A DNA stretch of 64,000 nt from a virus. The stretch lies in IMG/VR virus record IMGVR_UViG_3300008110_010375. One strand, 5' to 3'. A program made the translations under genes and the position numbers. The stretch's first letter is position 1. Every line of letters begins with the position of its first letter. The notes under the pieces are model-generated. The model was not told the DNA's origin and ran no database searches. It saw nothing but the letters and a program-made list of their open reading frames with translations. Shown here piece after piece: positions 16,036-59,630 of this stretch.

Positions 16036-17361
16036 ATGAAAGATGTTGACAAGTTCTTAAGCACTAAGAAACAATTGGACTCAATCAGTCCATCGATGTG
16101 CTATGCAAAGTGGTCGCAGGTTTCAGTAAAGCTCGGCGACGGCTTCACGCATTCATGTCATCATCCTAAGACGCATAAGATACCCCTCTCTGAAATAGAG
16201 AATAACCCATCGGCTCTTCACAATACTAAATATAAAAAAGAAGCGCGTCGTCAGATGATTGATGGCGTCAGGCCTAAAGAGTGTACATACTGTTGGATAG
16301 CAGAAGACTCTACAAAAGACGAAAACACTTTTAGCGATAGGATCAAAAAAAGCTCATATGATTGGTCAGCGGCGCTAGTTGATAAGATCGTAGCTGATCC
16401 ACACGCCGACATCAATCCATCTTTCATAGAGCTAAGCTTCAATAACACGTGTAACATGAAGTGCAGCTACTGCAGCCCAACGTATAGCTCGAAGTGGGCT
16501 GAGGAGGTAAAGCAGCACGGAGGCTATCCAACATCTTCCAACTTCAACGGAATCGACGTTTCAAAGCTTGTGAAGCAGAGGGACTACAATCCATACATCG
16601 AAGCTTTTTGGAAGTGGTGGCCTGAGCTGAGCAAAGACTTAAAAGTCTTAAGGATCACCGGAGGCGAGCCGCTTCTGTCTAAAAACACCTTTGACTTGAT
16701 CGACATGCTGATCGATGATCCAAAGTCCGACCTAGAGCTTAGGATCAACACGAACCTCAGCGTACCCAATGAGCTCATCGATAAGTTCATAGATAAGATG
16801 CAGCGCGTTCGATTGGCTAAAAAGAGAGTCTTCACCAGCTGCGAGGCGTACGGCGAGAAAGCCGAGTACATCAGGTTTGGTTTGAACTATCAGAAGTGGC
16901 ATGAAAACTGTGAGAAGATCTTACGAAGCCTGCCTGACTGCAGTCTTCAGATCATGAGCGCCTACAACGCTTTATGCACTACCAGCTTTGACGACTTTAT
17001 AAAAGACTTACTTTCGTTCAAAGGTAGAAACAACTTCTACGTAGATGTAGCTTTCGTGACGGATCCGTATCATCAATCTATTTTCATACTCGACGAATCG
17101 TTTGATCGATTCTTTAAAGATCACATCGAGACTTTTGAACGACACGGATTCTCAGCGCCTGAGACTAACAACGTCAAGCGAATCTACGACGTCTATAAGA
17201 ATAGAAACAGTCATCCGGCCGCTGACGTAAAGAGGGGAAGGAAAGACTTTGTTAAGTTCATAGATGAGCACGACGCTAGGAGAGGCACTGATTTTTTTAC
17301 GACTTTTCCTGAGATGGAAAAGTTCTACATCGACTGCATGAATAGAATGATCGGAGAATAA
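16036..17361 (+). CDS. N-terminal twitch-domain radical SAM protein
   Basis: CYAKW..SCHH..CTYC, CNMKCSYC, GGEP. Confidence 0.9.
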   Translation: MKDVDKFLSTKKQLDSISPSMCYAKWSQVSVKLGDGFTHSCHHPKTHKIPLSEIENNPSALHNTKYKKEARRQMIDGVRPKECTYCWIAEDSTKDENTFSDRIKKSSYDWSAALVDKIVADPHADINPSFIELSFNNTCNMKCSYCSPTYSSKWAEEVKQHGGYPTSSNFNGIDVSKLVKQRDYNPYIEAFWKWWPELSKDLKVLRITGGEPLLSKNTFDLIDMLIDDPKSDLELRINTNLSVPNELIDKFIDKMQRVRLAKKRVFTSCEAYGEKAEYIRFGLNYQKWHENCEKILRSLPDCSLQIMSAYNALCTTSFDDFIKDLLSFKGRNNFYVDVAFVTDPYHQSIFILDESFDRFFKDHIETFERHGFSAPETNNVKRIYDVYKNRNSHPAADVKRGRKDFVKFIDEHDARRGTDFFTTFPEMEKFYIDCMNRMIGE

Positions 17362-23749: not shown

Positions 23750-24397
23750 ATGAAGACTTTTACAGACTTTCTGACCGAAGCAGCCGGCGCCAAGCTCAAA
23801 CACCTTGAGCATCCCGAGGACAACGCCGTGACTTCAGCCGCCGGCTTCACCCACGCTTTCAAGGCGCTTCACGACGTTCACAAGGCGCTGAAGGGTCAGA
23901 AGAGCACCTCGCACGTCACCACCAAGCTCGACGGATCGCCGTCGATAGTGTTCGGTCGCCATCCTCAGACGGGTAAGTTCTTCGTCGCATCGAAGTCGGC
24001 GTTCAACAAGAATCCAAAGATCAACTACAGCCACGAAGACATCGATCGCAACCACGGTCACTCACCGGGACTCGCATCGAAGCTCAAGCAGGCGCTTGAG
24101 CACCTACCGAAGGTGACGCCTAAGAAGGGCGTCTATCAGGGCGACTTCATGCACTCGCACGACGACAGGCACGAAACTGACACGCACGTTCACTTCAAGC
24201 CGAACACCATCAGCTACTCAATCAAGAAGAGCTCGCCCGAAGGTCAGAAGGCCGTCAAGTCGAAGATCGGCGTCGCGGTTCACACCAAGTACGAAGGAAA
24301 GAGCTTGGAAGACATGCACGCTACTCCACACGTTGACCATGAAAACTTCAAGCAGCATAGAGATGTACATCTAATCTCTACACAGGCTAAGATTTAA
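23750..24397 (+). CDS. RNA-ligase-like (DUF6267-like) protein, N-terminal half
   Basis: MKTFTDFLTE leader, HLEHPED, KLDG (motif I), YQGDF (motif III). Confidence 0.7.
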   Translation: MKTFTDFLTEAAGAKLKHLEHPEDNAVTSAAGFTHAFKALHDVHKALKGQKSTSHVTTKLDGSPSIVFGRHPQTGKFFVASKSAFNKNPKINYSHEDIDRNHGHSPGLASKLKQALEHLPKVTPKKGVYQGDFMHSHDDRHETDTHVHFKPNTISYSIKKSSPEGQKAVKSKIGVAVHTKYEGKSLEDMHATPHVDHENFKQHRDVHLISTQAKI

Positions 24398-25314
24398 TGG
24401 GTGATTGGTCAAAATTAATAACAGTTAACTTTGTAGGTGGTTATTGTGGAGATTTCATTTGCTCTCTTGTGTATAACAGCTATTATGGCTCTCAAGTAGA
24501 TTTTTTTAATAGTGTAACCAAAGCTAAATTTAGTCCTAACATGGCGAGCTTTAAAAATATAGCTTTTGAAGGTGAAGGACTAAGAAACTTTGATATGATT
24601 ACTAATCTTTATTATAATAATGATTTTTATTCAACGTTCGTTAATGATATCAATAGAGTTAGTGATAATATAGATTTTTTTGATTATGCTTATTCCCATG
24701 TTGCAAAAATTTATAGAACTTGTTATGATCCCGACAAACAAACATTTATTAATAATGTTCTTGACTACTGCAGAAATGTAGTCCCTAGTGATCTAAAAGA
24801 TTTTACAATTATTACTCATCATTCTACTGATACTAGAATTCCAGAATTCAAATTTAGTAACATTTTTTTAGGATCACATAATATTGCTATTGTTAGCTCT
24901 GATTCAAAATTTGACAGATATTTTAGACTTTTAGGATATCATAAGTTTTATAAAAGATTATATACAGATAGAACATTAAAACAAGCATTTCAACAGATGA
25001 GAGCTTTAGAATCAGAATTTTTGATAAGTTGTGAAAGATCTGTTCTTAACGATATGGGTGAAATTAAAATTTACGTAGATAAATTTCTTTTCAGCAATGA
25101 CTTTACATATGTTAAACAAATGGAAGATATATTTTCTTCTATAATGGGAAAGCAAATAGTCTTTAACAAAGATGCTATTAAAACATATAGAGAAAACAAT
25201 AGAAAGATTTATTCACGATACTTAAACATCCCAGAAGATTTTGATCATGTTGATCCAATCAATGTATCAAAGATAAATGCTTTTATGGATGATGTAGAGG
25301 GTAAGAATGTCTAA
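24397..25314 (+). CDS. GxxGxF-family paralogue 5, AT-rich insertion
   Basis: FVGGYCGDF, CYDPDKQTFINNV; abrupt AT-rich codon usage. Confidence 0.75.
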   Translation: MGDWSKLITVNFVGGYCGDFICSLVYNSYYGSQVDFFNSVTKAKFSPNMASFKNIAFEGEGLRNFDMITNLYYNNDFYSTFVNDINRVSDNIDFFDYAYSHVAKIYRTCYDPDKQTFINNVLDYCRNVVPSDLKDFTIITHHSTDTRIPEFKFSNIFLGSHNIAIVSSDSKFDRYFRLLGYHKFYKRLYTDRTLKQAFQQMRALESEFLISCERSVLNDMGEIKIYVDKFLFSNDFTYVKQMEDIFSSIMGKQIVFNKDAIKTYRENNRKIYSRYLNIPEDFDHVDPINVSKINAFMDDVEGKNV

Positions 25315-54330: not shown

Positions 54331-55242
54331 ATGGCAACATCATTCGACTCACTCAAACAGAATCGTAAGTCAGCGTTCGATAAACTTACGAGCGAGCTCA
54401 ACAAGCTCAGCACCAACCAGCAAGACTCATCCGACGACAACTATTGGAAGCCCGAGGTCGACAAGGCCGGCAACGGCTACGCGGTCATCCGTTTCCTCCC
54501 GCCTCCGCAGGGCGAGGACGTTCCGTTCGTTCGCATCTGGGATCACGGCTTTCAGGGCGACGGCGGCTGGTACATCGAGAAGTCGCTGACGACCATCGGT
54601 AAGAACGATCCGGTCGGCGAGCTCAACAGCAAGCTCTGGAACTCCGGCGTCGAGGCCGACAAGGAGATCGCGCGCAAGCAGAAGCGTCGCCTCGCTTATC
54701 ACTCGAACATCTACGTCGTCAAGGATTCTGCGAATCCAGCGAACGAGGGCAAGGTGTTCCTGTATAAGTACGGCAAGAAGATCTTCGATAAGATCAACGA
54801 AGCCATGCACCCTCAGTTCGAGGGCGAAGTGGCGATCAATCCGTTCGATCTTTGGGAAGGCGCGAACTTCAAGCTGAAGATTCGCAACGTCGAGGGCTAC
54901 CGCAACTACGACAAGTCTGAGTTCGACGATCCGGCCCCGCTCCTCAGCGACGACGATAAGCTCGAAGCTATTTGGAAGTCGGAACACTCGCTCAGCGAAC
55001 TCATCGATCCTAAGAACTTCAAGTCCTACGACGAACTGAAGGCGCGCTTGTCGCGCGCACTCGGCGTCGGTGTCGAAGCCGCACGTGCATCTGCACCTAA
55101 GATCGACGAGGACGAGGCGTTCCCGGTGCCGCAGAAAGCTGCAGCGGCACCTAAGGTTGAGTCGGCCGCACCTTCGTGGAATAGCTCCACGGATGACGAC
55201 GACGATGACCTCAGCTTCTTTAAGAAGATGGCGAACGACTAA
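54331..55242 (+). CDS. 32: ssDNA-binding protein gp32
   Basis: GNGYAVIRFLP, NYDKSEF, acidic tail. Confidence 0.97.
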   Translation: MATSFDSLKQNRKSAFDKLTSELNKLSTNQQDSSDDNYWKPEVDKAGNGYAVIRFLPPPQGEDVPFVRIWDHGFQGDGGWYIEKSLTTIGKNDPVGELNSKLWNSGVEADKEIARKQKRRLAYHSNIYVVKDSANPANEGKVFLYKYGKKIFDKINEAMHPQFEGEVAINPFDLWEGANFKLKIRNVEGYRNYDKSEFDDPAPLLSDDDKLEAIWKSEHSLSELIDPKNFKSYDELKARLSRALGVGVEAARASAPKIDEDEAFPVPQKAAAAPKVESAAPSWNSSTDDDDDDLSFFKKMAND

Positions 55243-56972
55243 TAGTAGTACATATTGTCGCCGTACAGTGGTTTATCCCACGGATTGCTCGGCGCGGTAG
55301 ATGAGTTAGGGAAGCCGGGAGCGGAACCACCGCCTCCGGCTTTACTGTTATCTGCGTTGTTGATGACTCGGTTGTCGTTGATGATCGTGGATCCGGATTG
55401 ATTGCTTTGGATCGAAGGAGCGGTACGCGTCGAGGGAGTCACCCTAGACATGATGTCTTCTTCAAGCTGTCTCGCTTGAGACATTCCTGGTGACCGTGCT
55501 GGTGAAACTCCTGTATAATCTCCAATTTCTTCCAACTGCATCGTATCAGGATTATACCTAGTTCTTTTCTTACCATCTGCAAACTTTACACCGGCATTAT
55601 CTTCAACTGTCTGCATCTGTTCATTGGCTGTTCTGCCTTCACGAACTTCTTGATTTGATTTAACTTGAAACGCGTTAGAAAGATCTTTCCACACTTCTGC
55701 TAAGTACTCGTTTACAGCTTCTTGTATTTCATCGGATGAAACGTCTTTAAGCTCTTCGATACCTAAAGCGTCACGCCTGATGTCGTTGACGAGTTGACCG
55801 GTGCCAAGTGCGCTTGACATAGCAGCTAGAGGTCCAGCTGCAGTGGCTCCTGCCGGAGTCGCTTCGGCTATCGATATCGCCGCCTGTGCCGCGTCGATAA
55901 ACGCACCCATGTAATCGCCTCTTGTCAATCTTCCAATGCTGCTAGCGCCAGCGACGAAAGCACCGAGTAGAGGAACCTGTTTTGACACGAGTCCAACGGC
56001 GCCGCCTACAGACTTTTCAACAGTTTTAGAAACTAATCCCTTTAGCTTCTCTTTCCTTGAAGCTTTGGGCGCGACCAACGGCGCGGAGGTTGCACCGGTC
56101 TTAGCTCCGGCTCTTGCACCGGCCGCGTTGCTAGCTAGAGTCTTTCTCGCTTGATTCTTGGTGGCTTCATCGTAAGCTGACATCCTTCGGCGATTATCTT
56201 CCTCGCTCGCTTCAGGTCCTTCACCTGCGAAAGCTGATTTAGCTTCAGCGGCTCTCGCCTGTATTGCTTTCCGTTGAGCGTTCCTACGCTTCTGCTCAGC
56301 TATGTCTTCCTCGGTGCCGAGGAATGAGATCTTCTTTCCACCCTTGGTGTACTCAGGCGTGTTGACCCCTAGAGCGTTTAAGATCTTTATAAGCGTCGAT
56401 GAGACTTCCTTGTTGCTGGCGAAGAACTCACCGGCCGTGGCAGCGAAGTTTAAGAACGGATCTAAGTAGGGCTTGATCGTGTTCGTATAGAATTCTTTGA
56501 GCGCAGGGATGATCTTATCGATCGTGCCTGCCAGCAAAGCTGCGAGGCCGCCTAGCGCTCCAAGCTCAGTTAAGTCGAGACCACGACCCCTGCCTTCAGC
56601 CTTTGTGCCGTCTTTAGCTTTGACTGGAATCTCGATAGCCCGTCTACCGCGCTCCTTCTCCTGCTCTTGAGAGATGAGCATGCGCTCGATTAGCTCGTTG
56701 TTGCTCTCAAAAACTTTTGAGATCGACTGGATGAATCCGGAGAGAAGGCTGTTCGTCTTCTTGACTTCGTTGAGGACCTTGTTCTGGGTCTTATCGAGCT
56801 CACCTACGGTCTCACCCTCGGCGACGGCAGCGGGCCTGTTGATGAACTGAGGCGCGACTGCCTCAGCGAGCATCGCCTTCGTCTCCTGCAGACGGGCCGA
56901 CCTTTCCTCCTCAGGGATCTTCTCCATCCCCTTGATGATCTCGCTGAGATCCTTGATCTTAACCTGAGCCAT
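55239..56972 (-). CDS. tape-measure/baseplate hub-like protein
   Basis: Ala/Gly-rich helical protein downstream of gp26/gp51. Confidence 0.6.
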   Translation of the reverse strand: MAQVKIKDLSEIIKGMEKIPEEERSARLQETKAMLAEAVAPQFINRPAAVAEGETVGELDKTQNKVLNEVKKTNSLLSGFIQSISKVFESNNELIERMLISQEQEKERGRRAIEIPVKAKDGTKAEGRGRGLDLTELGALGGLAALLAGTIDKIIPALKEFYTNTIKPYLDPFLNFAATAGEFFASNKEVSSTLIKILNALGVNTPEYTKGGKKISFLGTEEDIAEQKRRNAQRKAIQARAAEAKSAFAGEGPEASEEDNRRRMSAYDEATKNQARKTLASNAAGARAGAKTGATSAPLVAPKASRKEKLKGLVSKTVEKSVGGAVGLVSKQVPLLGAFVAGASSIGRLTRGDYMGAFIDAAQAAISIAEATPAGATAAGPLAAMSSALGTGQLVNDIRRDALGIEELKDVSSDEIQEAVNEYLAEVWKDLSNAFQVKSNQEVREGRTANEQMQTVEDNAGVKFADGKKRTRYNPDTMQLEEIGDYTGVSPARSPGMSQARQLEEDIMSRVTPSTRTAPSIQSNQSGSTIINDNRVINNADNSKAGGGGSAPGFPNSSTAPSNPWDKPLYGDNMYYY

Positions 56973-57132
56973 TCTTCTTGTTCTGCTCGTCTATGTGCTG
57001 CGCGATCATGGTCAAGTATAGGTCGCGCTCGTAGGGATACATCTCGTTCAGTTCTGTCACTGAGTATTTATGGTGAAACGTCATCGCGAAGTGGGTTTGA
57101 TAGTAGACCGCGATACTGGAGTATCCGGTCAA
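56959..57132 (-). CDS. 51: gp51-like baseplate hub assembly protein (absent from the ORF track)
   Basis: YYQTHFAMTFHHKYSVTELNEMYPYERDLY. Confidence 0.85.
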   Translation of the reverse strand: MTGYSSIAVYYQTHFAMTFHHKYSVTELNEMYPYERDLYLTMIAQHIDEQNKKNGSG

Positions 57133-57842
57133 TAGGTAAAAAAATCCTTCATACCCCTCAGCTCGACTTTGACCTTTTCGCCACCCACGTCGAGCTCGAC
57201 TTCATGTTGGACGGCAGGCATAGTTGCAAAGAAGTTCTGGATCTTAGTCAAGTCCTCGACCCTGAGTGAGTTCAAGAAGTCGGTGATCTCGTCTTTGGTG
57301 AATTCTTTGTAGACCTTGTCGTCGTCGAATATGTACTCTATCGAGCCGACGATCAGGTTGAAGATCGAGTCGTTGACTATCGCCGCGTCGAAGTTGTTCA
57401 GACGAACGTCGAACTCCATGGTCATCATGGTCTCAAGGTCTGGGTACTTCATCTTGATGCCCAAAGCCTCGTTGATCATGATCTTATCGGTGTGGTCAGG
57501 ATTGAACTTGACCTTGACCTCATCGAGATCGACGTTGAACGCGACCTTCTTTTCATTGTGTGTATAGAACAGCTCGACGACGTTGCTGATCGACACCTTG
57601 CGGATGTTGATGAATATGTACTCGATGTCGAAGATCGCCAGCTTATCGACGTCGATGCTGTCGATGACGCAGTTGTTTATGACCTGCTTGACCGCGTCGA
57701 TGACTTCCTTGAGGTCGTCCGACATCTTCACGACGAGGAGGAGCTTCTCCTCCTGCACGGTGAAGGGCCTATAGCTTATAGTCTTCCCAGTCGAGGGAAC
57801 CACCAGCTTGAAGAGCGGGTGCTTGATCTTTGGCAGAGCCAT
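57129..57842 (-). CDS. 26: gp26-like baseplate hub assembly chaperone
   Basis: MALPKI..P, RPF.V.EEK.LL, ends G..DFF. Confidence 0.9.
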   Translation of the reverse strand: MALPKIKHPLFKLVVPSTGKTISYRPFTVQEEKLLLVVKMSDDLKEVIDAVKQVINNCVIDSIDVDKLAIFDIEYIFINIRKVSISNVVELFYTHNEKKVAFNVDLDEVKVKFNPDHTDKIMINEALGIKMKYPDLETMMTMEFDVRLNNFDAAIVNDSIFNLIVGSIEYIFDDDKVYKEFTKDEITDFLNSLRVEDLTKIQNFFATMPAVQHEVELDVGGEKVKVELRGMKDFFTY

Positions 57843-57853
57843 CTTATACTCCA

Positions 57854-58606
57854 TTATCTAAGGGATGTAGCGAACGCGTTCACTCCACTGATGAGCGCGA
57901 GGGGACTCTTGCGCCCGTTCTGTAGTAGGTTTAGGCCGAAGGCGAAGGCGCCTCCGTAGTTGAATCTTTGGGAAGCGTAGTAGGCGTTCATCGCCCTCTC
58001 GGCTTCGAGCGAGTCCATCTCAGTCGCGGGTATTCCCTCGCTGTCCCACGTCTTATAGGCGAAGGTCACCGGCAAGCGGGCGATCGTATCGTTCATCTCC
58101 CAACCCACCGGCACCGAGCCGATCTGCATCGGGAAGGCGCGATCTAAGCTGTACTTGATTATCTGATCGGCGCTTGGGTTCAAGAAGTAGATGTCGATGG
58201 ACGGCGACTCATAGGTCTCAGGGTACGCGAATTCACCGTACTTCAACGACGAGCCGCGCTGAACGCCGGTCGTGTCGACGCTGAAGTTGTGAATGAGGGT
58301 GGACCACTTATGAAAGTAGTCGATGACTTTGGCGTCGTTGTCGACCATGAACGTCAGGGTGACTTCGTTGAAGTTGATGTCCGTCGGCCTGTTCTCGTGC
58401 ACCCCGTATCCGCCGAGCTTGACGGGCGTCGTGCTGTACACAAGTCCCGGAAGGACCGCGTCGCTGCAAAAGAACGGAACTTGACCGGTGTAGCTCGCGT
58501 AGAGTAGGTTCTTGGGAGGCGTGATCTGTACGTAGAACAGGTTCTGCTTGGCGACGCCGCCGGTCTTATTGAGTGCCGAAGTTATGTCTGTGATGTTGAA
58601 TGCCAT
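57854..58606 (-). CDS. tail tube-like baseplate protein (gp54/gp19 family)
   Basis: C....LPG, AFP......VTFAY. Confidence 0.75.
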   Translation of the reverse strand: MAFNITDITSALNKTGGVAKQNLFYVQITPPKNLLYASYTGQVPFFCSDAVLPGLVYSTTPVKLGGYGVHENRPTDINFNEVTLTFMVDNDAKVIDYFHKWSTLIHNFSVDTTGVQRGSSLKYGEFAYPETYESPSIDIYFLNPSADQIIKYSLDRAFPMQIGSVPVGWEMNDTIARLPVTFAYKTWDSEGIPATEMDSLEAERAMNAYYASQRFNYGGAFAFGLNLLQNGRKSPLALISGVNAFATSLR

Positions 58607-59196
58607 CAGGACCTTCTTACAGTTGCGTTCGAGTCTCTATAGACGCTCGCCTTGTTCACTGTGAACCTCTCGAGCGGGAGGAACAAAGCGATGTCCCACT
58701 CGTTGGATGGTATAAGGAGGAACCTCGTCCTGAGCTGGGTGTACAGGTACCTCTTGATGCACGGTTTGAAGTATTTATACCTTGAAGCTGAGTTGAGTAT
58801 GTCGTAGGACATCCTCAGCTTCGTCCTGTCGTCGAAGTTCTGGTTCGAAGCTAGGTTGTATAAAGCGTCCATCAGGCGCGCCCGCAGCAGGTGCGGGAGG
58901 TAGTGCATGTTTATGCCGGTGAAGCCATCGGGATGCATGGTGAAGGGGAACACCAGCGGGTACCTATCGTAGTACGGCAGGTCGTCCTTGAACTTAGGGT
59001 CATAGCTGAAGAGATACATGTATCCCGGAGCGACCGCGGCGCGCTGCATGGCGGGATTGCTGTTGATCAGTCTCGTCAAGTTGACGTTTGAGACCTCGCG
59101 CGCCTTCTCACGAAACCAGTCGCGCGAGTCGGCGAAGCCGGCGCGCATGAAGTTCTGTCTGCCTTGGTTGAGTATGTCGGTGAATACCGGCATCAC
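58606..59196 (-). CDS. 2: DNA end protector gp2
   Basis: YDPK.K..LPYYD..PL, G.N.HYLP. Confidence 0.9.
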   Translation of the reverse strand: MMPVFTDILNQGRQNFMRAGFADSRDWFREKAREVSNVNLTRLINSNPAMQRAAVAPGYMYLFSYDPKFKDDLPYYDRYPLVFPFTMHPDGFTGINMHYLPHLLRARLMDALYNLASNQNFDDRTKLRMSYDILNSASRYKYFKPCIKRYLYTQLRTRFLLIPSNEWDIALFLPLERFTVNKASVYRDSNATVRRS

Positions 59197-59630
59197 TTGA
59201 CTCCGATCTCTTTCTCAGTCATTATCTTAAACTTCCAGTTCCTATCTCTACAGAACTCGCTGGCCGCCTTCCACTTGGCTTGGTTGACGCCGTACTGAAA
59301 CACTTCCTTCAAGTACCTGCGCGGGTGCGCGGGATTCTTCTTAGGCTCGATGGTTTGACTGTACGGCTTGACCTCGATCATAAGCGTTGAGGTGTCTCCG
59401 CCGGTCTCACGCATCTTCACGATGAAGTCTGGGTAGTACCTGTGAATCCTGTTGTCGACCGGCGATACGTATGGAATCGCGAGCTCCTCCGATCCCCACT
59501 TCAATACGTTAGGGTGTTGGTCGAAGTACCTCATCAGCCTCAGCTCCCATAGGCTCCTGTAGATGATGTTGGTCGGGTCACCGGCGTATTTCTCAGGGTA
59601 CTTAGGCCTGAATCTTCCCTTGTAGGACAT
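59193..59630 (-). CDS. 4: head completion nuclease gp4
   Basis: YRSLWE, YYPDF, EVKP. Confidence 0.92.
   Translation of the reverse strand: MSYKGRFRPKYPEKYAGDPTNIIYRSLWELRLMRYFDQHPNVLKWGSEELAIPYVSPVDNRIHRYYPDFIVKMRETGGDTSTLMIEVKPYSQTIEPKKNPAHPRRYLKEVFQYGVNQAKWKAASEFCRDRNWKFKIMTEKEIGVK

Follow-up and report, generated by a model that had tools for sequence, protein, structure and literature searches.

A conserved -1 frameshift of tail assembly chaperone (TAC) genes, known from lambda gpG and gpGT, is said to have been described by Xu, Hendrix and Duda in Mol Cell in 2004. The locus treated here is the junction of gp26 and gp51 on the minus strand of the genome of an uncultured T4-like phage, IMG/VR virus record IMGVR_UViG_3300008110_010375, of which a stretch of 64,000 nucleotides (nt) was analysed (the window). 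The accessible part of the report by Vladimirov, Gautam and Davidson (Virology 2022;566:9-15; PMID 34826709) describes the TAC genes of T4-like phages as gp26 (TAC-N) and gp51 (TAC-NC). In the available text of PMC12846349, poly-T -1 signals at the end of T4-like TAC-N genes are credited to Vladimirov et al. 2022, and the PRFect paper (PMC10885494), in its available text, sums up the 2022 work to the effect that in some T4-like phages frameshifting is replaced by two genes, one short and one long and fused. In 2010, gp26 and gp51 were placed among the hub assembly chaperones by Leiman et al. (PMC3004832), and cyanophage gp51 was reported by Sullivan et al. to be without its first ~200 residues, no explanation being offered (PMC3037559). 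In the window, the sequences compared indicate that ribosomal -1 frameshifting probably fuses gp26 and the gp51 open reading frame (ORF), which would make the two one recoded gene.

The slip site in the window and its relatives

The elements of the junction are as follows (aa, amino acids).

57129-57854, minus strand: gp26 (TAC-N, the short chaperone form), 241 aa, zero frame; PF12322 and phrog_150
57138-57144, minus strand: slippery heptamer T TTT TTT, in the X XXY YYZ register of the gp26 frame
56959-57144, minus strand: -1 extension, 61 codons including both slip-site Phe, plus stop
56959-57132, minus strand: gp51 ORF, 57 aa; phrog_634 'baseplate hub assembly catalyst' (E 6.6e-18)
57130-57132, minus strand: TTG overlapping the gp26 stop (TTGA), sole candidate independent start of the annotated 57-aa gp51

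The 3' end of gp26 reads AAG GAT TTT TTT ACC TAT TGA, and the heptamer given in the first-pass annotation of the window is found there in the sequence. From the heptamer the -1 frame reads FFYLLTGYSSIAVYYQTHFAM... and is open for 61 codons, up to a stop at 56959-56961; this is the frame of gp51. The predicted long form (TAC-NC, equivalent to T4 gp51) has 298 aa, made up of gp26 residues 1-239 and 59 further residues, and the predicted junction peptide of the gp26-gp51 fusion is DFFYLLTGYSSIAVYYQTHFAMTFHHK. The gp26 protein matches PF12322 (T4_baseplate) with E 6.7e-54 over profile positions 4-218 of 219, and phrog_150 (baseplate hub) with E 1.5e-62. The gp51 ORF covers only the last part of its profiles, namely positions 61-112 of 121 in phrog_634 and 193-241 of 244 in phrog_23772 (E 4e-5). 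As the same annotation had stated, the gp51 frame has a TTG and no ATG ahead of its YYxTxF motif (here YYQTHF); the TTG is the only start codon 5' of the motif, and the first ATG comes after it. The window contains a single gp26-family gene and a single extension ORF, and no second, full-length gp51 paralog was found within its 64 kb.

Phe is mostly encoded by TTC in this genome, as had been noted before: the 61 ORFs of the window contain 230 TTT and 623 TTC codons (27% TTT). GAT makes up 31% of the Asp codons in the same ORFs, and the chance of the heptamer, given Asp-Phe-Phe, is ~0.08. Three other in-frame GAT TTT TTT sites are present in window ORFs.

17292-17298, 24501-24507 and 24675-24681, plus strand: further in-frame heptamers, in ORFs 16036-17361 and 24397-25314

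The first of these ORFs is radical SAM-like (phrog_14086, E 3.9e-15). At all three sites the -1 frame shuts within 2-6 codons, and therefore no extended product is possible there; the gp26 site is the only one that leads into a conserved ORF of some length. Taken alone, the heptamer is weak evidence in this window; its significance comes from the comparison with relatives, which is decisive. GAT also precedes four of the five TTT-TTT Phe pairs of the window.

The comparison set consisted of 98 evaluable loci (42 clusters at 60% identity): 87 IMG/VR loci and the named phages S-CREM1, Syn9, S-PRM1, P-HM1, Sinorhizobium phiM19, Pseudomonas Milchi, Aeromonas AS-zj, Rhizobium LG08, Stenotrophomonas Yut3, a KVP40-like vibriophage and Vibrio K351. 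The closest gp26 in the phage and IMG/VR collections searched is at most 43% identical to the window protein. When the heptamer and its -1 phase were followed across these T4-like junctions, 97 of 98 loci and 41 of 42 clusters turned out to carry T TTT TTY in frame with gp26, its distance to the gp26 stop being 6-15 nt. The codon before the T-run is AGT (44 loci), GAT (21), AAT (15), TCT (13), GCT (3) or ACT (1); it specifies five different amino acids and ends in T in 97 of 97. The first slip-site Phe codon is likewise TTT in 97/97. The last base of the heptamer (Z) is free, being C in 60 loci and T in 37. The Phe-Phe of the FFATMP motif served as an internal control; its first codon is TTC in 49 of 72 cases, and the heptamer occurs in none of the 72. 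On this comparison the codon constraints at the slip site are exactly those expected of tandem tRNA slippage (X XXY YYZ). The sole locus without a canonical heptamer is that of Vibrio phage K351 (OZ196363), where gp26 ends in TCA CTT TTC AAG TAA. A gp51-like ORF is kept in its -1 frame (L094:3220-3460), and slippage there may depend on a site that is weaker or of another type.

The -1 peptides are conserved from the slip site on. In 40 of them, aligned from this point, no gaps occur over the first 18 columns, and the conserved pattern (hydrophobic residues, S-H, S-L, Y-Y, N-F) starts right after the two Phe. Counted from the slip site, the first ATG, GTG or TTG of the -1 frame falls at positions ranging from codon 3 to codon 31, and about one third of the loci have no start codon at all ahead of the conserved -1 block. 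The annotated start of gp51 differs between records, and a joined coding sequence is given in 0 of the 11 named phage records inspected. No gp51 is annotated in Aeromonas phage AS-zj (NC_048673, L095:3202-3378) or in Synechococcus virus S-PRM1 (L100:3199-3417); both carry a T TTT TTC site and a conserved -1 extension of the gp51 type. A conserved independent start of gp51 thus does not exist, because the first start codon varies, the annotated starts differ and two records are without gp51. AS-zj is a relative of phage Aeh1. In Sullivan et al. 2010, gp51 is given as missing in Aeh1 (PMC3037559); it may perhaps be only hidden, as in AS-zj. The slip site, its phase and the gap-free -1 peptide, found over divergent T4-like phages, strongly support the proposal of the first-pass annotation that a -1 slip would join gp26 to the gp51 frame.

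Comparison with T4 and lambda

In T4, genes 26 and 51 are two separate genes, located on opposite strands and divergent. T4 gp26 matches PF12322 with E 8.8e-64. Residues 1-201 of T4 gp51 match the same model over its full length (E 3.9e-52), and the -1 peptides are colinear with residues 199-249, gap-free and with the junction included. Because of these two matches, T4 gp51 is, as judged from the alignments, a gp26-family domain with a conserved C-terminal extension, and thus a ready-made counterpart of the predicted fusion. The full-length form of gp51 was found in 1375 phage records, mostly of phages of enterobacteria, Acinetobacter and Aeromonas. T4 and these ~1375 related records have the two forms as separate genes, whereas the window phage would have a one-gene, recoded arrangement. 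Loss of the heptamer coincides exactly with the presence of a separate full-length gp51; in T4, gp26 ends in GAG TTC TTT GAG TTA CTA TAA, with the Phe-Phe kept and the heptamer absent. The T4-like gp26/gp51 pair of Vladimirov et al. 2022 and the pair of the window have PF12322 and the gp51 C-terminal extension in common, as well as their assignment as chaperones and, going by PMC12846349, the type of poly-T -1 signal that closes the TAC-N gene. In Acinetobacter phage vB_AbaM_Konradin (MN648195.1) a full-length gp51 homologue is annotated as 'tape measure protein assembly chaperone'. The chaperone reading of gp51 is already present in some database records.

An AlphaFold2 model of the window gp26, built from 41 sequences, had a predicted local distance difference test (pLDDT) score of 91.7 and a predicted template modelling (pTM) score of 0.86. 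Against PDB representatives, residues 1-98 of the model matched 3fgx (Z 8.2), the HK97 tail assembly chaperone 2ob9 (Z 7.9, 86 of 104 residues aligned), YqbN 3klu (Z 7.2) and 5ir0 (Z 5.4); unrelated rows were at Z 4.6 and below. A Foldseek search of PDB with the model gave no match at E 0.001 or better (2ob9 ranked third, with E 0.78 and probability 0.57, not significant), and a profile search of PDB sequences with gp26 gave nothing meaningful. The model points, with moderate confidence, to a tail-assembly-chaperone-like fold of the N-terminal domain of gp26.

The locus resembles lambda G/GT in that a short and a C-terminally extended form would come from overlapping ORFs, with a heptamer near the end of the first ORF; in that the gp26 pair is located downstream of the tail tube gene; and in the TAC-like N-terminal fold of the predicted model. 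It differs from lambda in the larger size of gp26 (241 aa) with its additional domains, in the T4 homologues, which are known as baseplate hub assembly factors, and in its family matches, as no lambda-type TAC Pfam family was detected for gp26 (hmmscan at E up to 10 gives PF12322 alone). The first-pass annotation had described the two proteins as the unrecognised, lambda G/GT-type chaperone pair of this lineage. The G/GT logic stands, in view of how T4 gp51 is built and of the TAC-like fold, and the word 'unrecognised' does not: hub chaperones were listed in 2010 and the gp26/gp51 chaperone pair was, by the accessible part of the paper, published in 2022. The window represents a real and strongly conserved recoding site in a divergent lineage.

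Mechanism and alternative explanations

Translation of the junction is envisaged as follows. The majority of ribosomes would stop at the TGA of gp26 and give the 241-aa short form. A minority would slip back by one nucleotide, with two Phe-tRNAs on U UUU UUU, and continue in the -1 frame to give the 298-aa long form. The short and long forms would act as TAC-N and TAC-NC of the T4-like tail, as do gpG and gpGT in lambda. Two flanking elements, one Shine-Dalgarno (SD)-like, may increase the rate of slippage.

57154-57159, minus strand: SD-like GAGGGG, 9 nt 5' of the heptamer; putative stimulator
57106-57130, minus strand: hairpin of 10 bp with one bulge, beginning 7 nt 3' of the heptamer; putative stimulator

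An SD-like 4-mer ending 8-11 nt 5' of the heptamer is present in 82 of 97 loci and 29 of 41 clusters, compared with ~10% at random gp26 positions. The share of GAG among Glu codons is 59% at the SD-like site and 31% in the remaining part of gp26. Most relatives encode Glu at this site; the window encodes Arg and nevertheless keeps GAGG. The minimum free energy of the window hairpin is -13.9 kcal/mol, with z -1.07 over 80 nt and z -1.8 over 60 nt. Over the 97 loci, downstream structure has a mean z of -1.08; 40% of the loci are below -1.5, and the structure is not universal. The hairpin was dropped as significant evidence in the window on account of its z of -1.07.

The E. coli dnaX cassette consists of an SD-like element, A AAA AAG and a hairpin. 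The window has the same three-part layout, with GAGGGG 9 nt upstream, the heptamer, and the hairpin 7 nt downstream; it differs from dnaX in its heptamer, which is U UUU UUU instead of A AAA AAG, and in its flanking elements, which are putative and not universal in relatives. It is tentatively suggested that the T4-like recoding site could be a dnaX-like cassette, composed of an SD-like GAGG or AAGG 8-11 nt upstream that is kept at the nucleotide level, U UUU UUY, and a hairpin 5-8 nt downstream, with a free 57-aa gp51 from TTGA as a possible third product here.

Several points weigh against frameshifting by the ribosome. The hairpin is not significantly more stable than shuffled sequences, and neither flanking element is universal in the relatives. 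The T4 gp26 protein ends in ...KEFFELL, which means that Phe-Phe is conserved at the protein level and explains part of the T-run. The TTGA overlap would permit an independently started 57-aa peptide in this phage. No measured slippage efficiency on U UUU UUU is known to us for this host. No protein or reporter data on the slip were found for this phage or its relatives in the accessible literature. The wording of the title of Vladimirov et al. 2022, the part of that paper relied on here, was counted in favour of transcriptional slippage. The PRFect paper, in its available text, takes this title as being about the two-gene phages (PMC10885494).

Transcriptional slippage would mean that some of the transcripts acquire one extra U as RNA polymerase stutters along the T-run, which has seven T here. 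The protein product would be the identical 298-aa form, and a homopolymer of 6-8 T is present at the site in all relatives. This explanation is considered unlikely. Bacterial RNA polymerase slippage usually needs runs of ~9 or more, and only six T are present in 60 of the 97 loci. Selection holds the 5' T (97/97) and not the 3' T (37/97), which is the register of tandem tRNAs and not that of the longest run. The SD-like element upstream and the downstream structure, both of them enriched, are of a kind that acts on ribosomes; together they favour a ribosomal mechanism, short of proof.

Frameshifting by the ribosome, the preferred reading, was also compared with the view taken in database annotation, according to which there is no recoding and gp51 is an independent 57-aa protein, made by termination-reinitiation from the TTG at TTGA. 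The overlap of this TTG with the TGA fits such a view, as do the 11 of 11 named phage records that annotate either separate genes or nothing. It is regarded as quite improbable, since its start codon is not conserved (codon 3 to 31, and none before the conserved block in about a third of the loci), annotated starts vary by record, AS-zj and S-PRM1 have no gp51 gene, and the -1 peptide is conserved gap-free 5' of such starts, right from the heptamer. It also leaves the synonymous-site constraint on the heptamer unexplained; in T4 the segment has its homologue solely at the C-terminal end of a protein resembling gp26; and the closest SD-like motif to the TTG, AAGGA, is 12 nt upstream. Initiation at TTG is possible as the source of an additional product in this phage and cannot explain the family-wide pattern.

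That the heptamer is a functionless chance by-product of a conserved Phe-Phe C-terminus is very improbable, in spite of its ~0.08 chance given Asp-Phe-Phe, its three other in-frame copies in the window and the Phe-Phe at the end of T4 gp26, since it occurs in 97 of 98 loci as against 0 of 72 internal controls, follows a wobble base that is invariant over five amino acids, and is gone exactly where a separate full-length gp51 is present.

Gene neighbourhood and significance

The genes on either side of the junction are the following.

59193-59630, minus strand: gp4-like head completion gene, upstream in the same gene order
58606-59196, minus strand: gp2-like DNA end protector, upstream in the same gene order
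57854-58606, minus strand: tail-tube-family gene, directly 5' of gp26; PF23849 Phage_TTP_2 (E 5.9e-8), phrog_45 tail tube (E 4.6e-38)
55239-56972, minus strand: 577-aa protein, directly 3' of the gp51 ORF; candidate tape measure

The last 14 nt of the gp51 extension ORF already contain the ATG of the 577-aa gene (56959-56972, minus strand; AAG AAT GGC TCA GGT TAA), an overlap that suggests translational coupling of this gene to ribosomes finishing the extension. The first-pass annotation had called the gene tape-measure-like, and no support was obtained for this description. The protein has no Pfam, PHROG or NCBIfam match, and no similarity was detected when it was compared with T4 gp29 and with the syntenic genes of ~100 relatives. 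In the Atlas its model is of low confidence, and the clusters closest to it consist of hypothetical viral proteins 518-669 aa long. In phiM19, the syntenic gene matches tape-measure PHROGs weakly (E 1.8e-5). The 577-aa protein is a candidate tape measure by position, length and Ala/Gly/Glu-rich composition only.

The locus adds a further divergent example of the T4-like arrangement, together with a quantitative test of its conservation. Frameshifting at this site would account for an observation that was left as a puzzle in 2010 (PMC3037559): in cyanophages and marine phages, gp51 is only about one fifth as long as in T4. Database records would be in error, either splitting a single recoded gene into two or annotating its first part alone. 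T4-like phages would follow the pattern general to long-tailed phages, in which the tail chaperone is made in a short and a long version.

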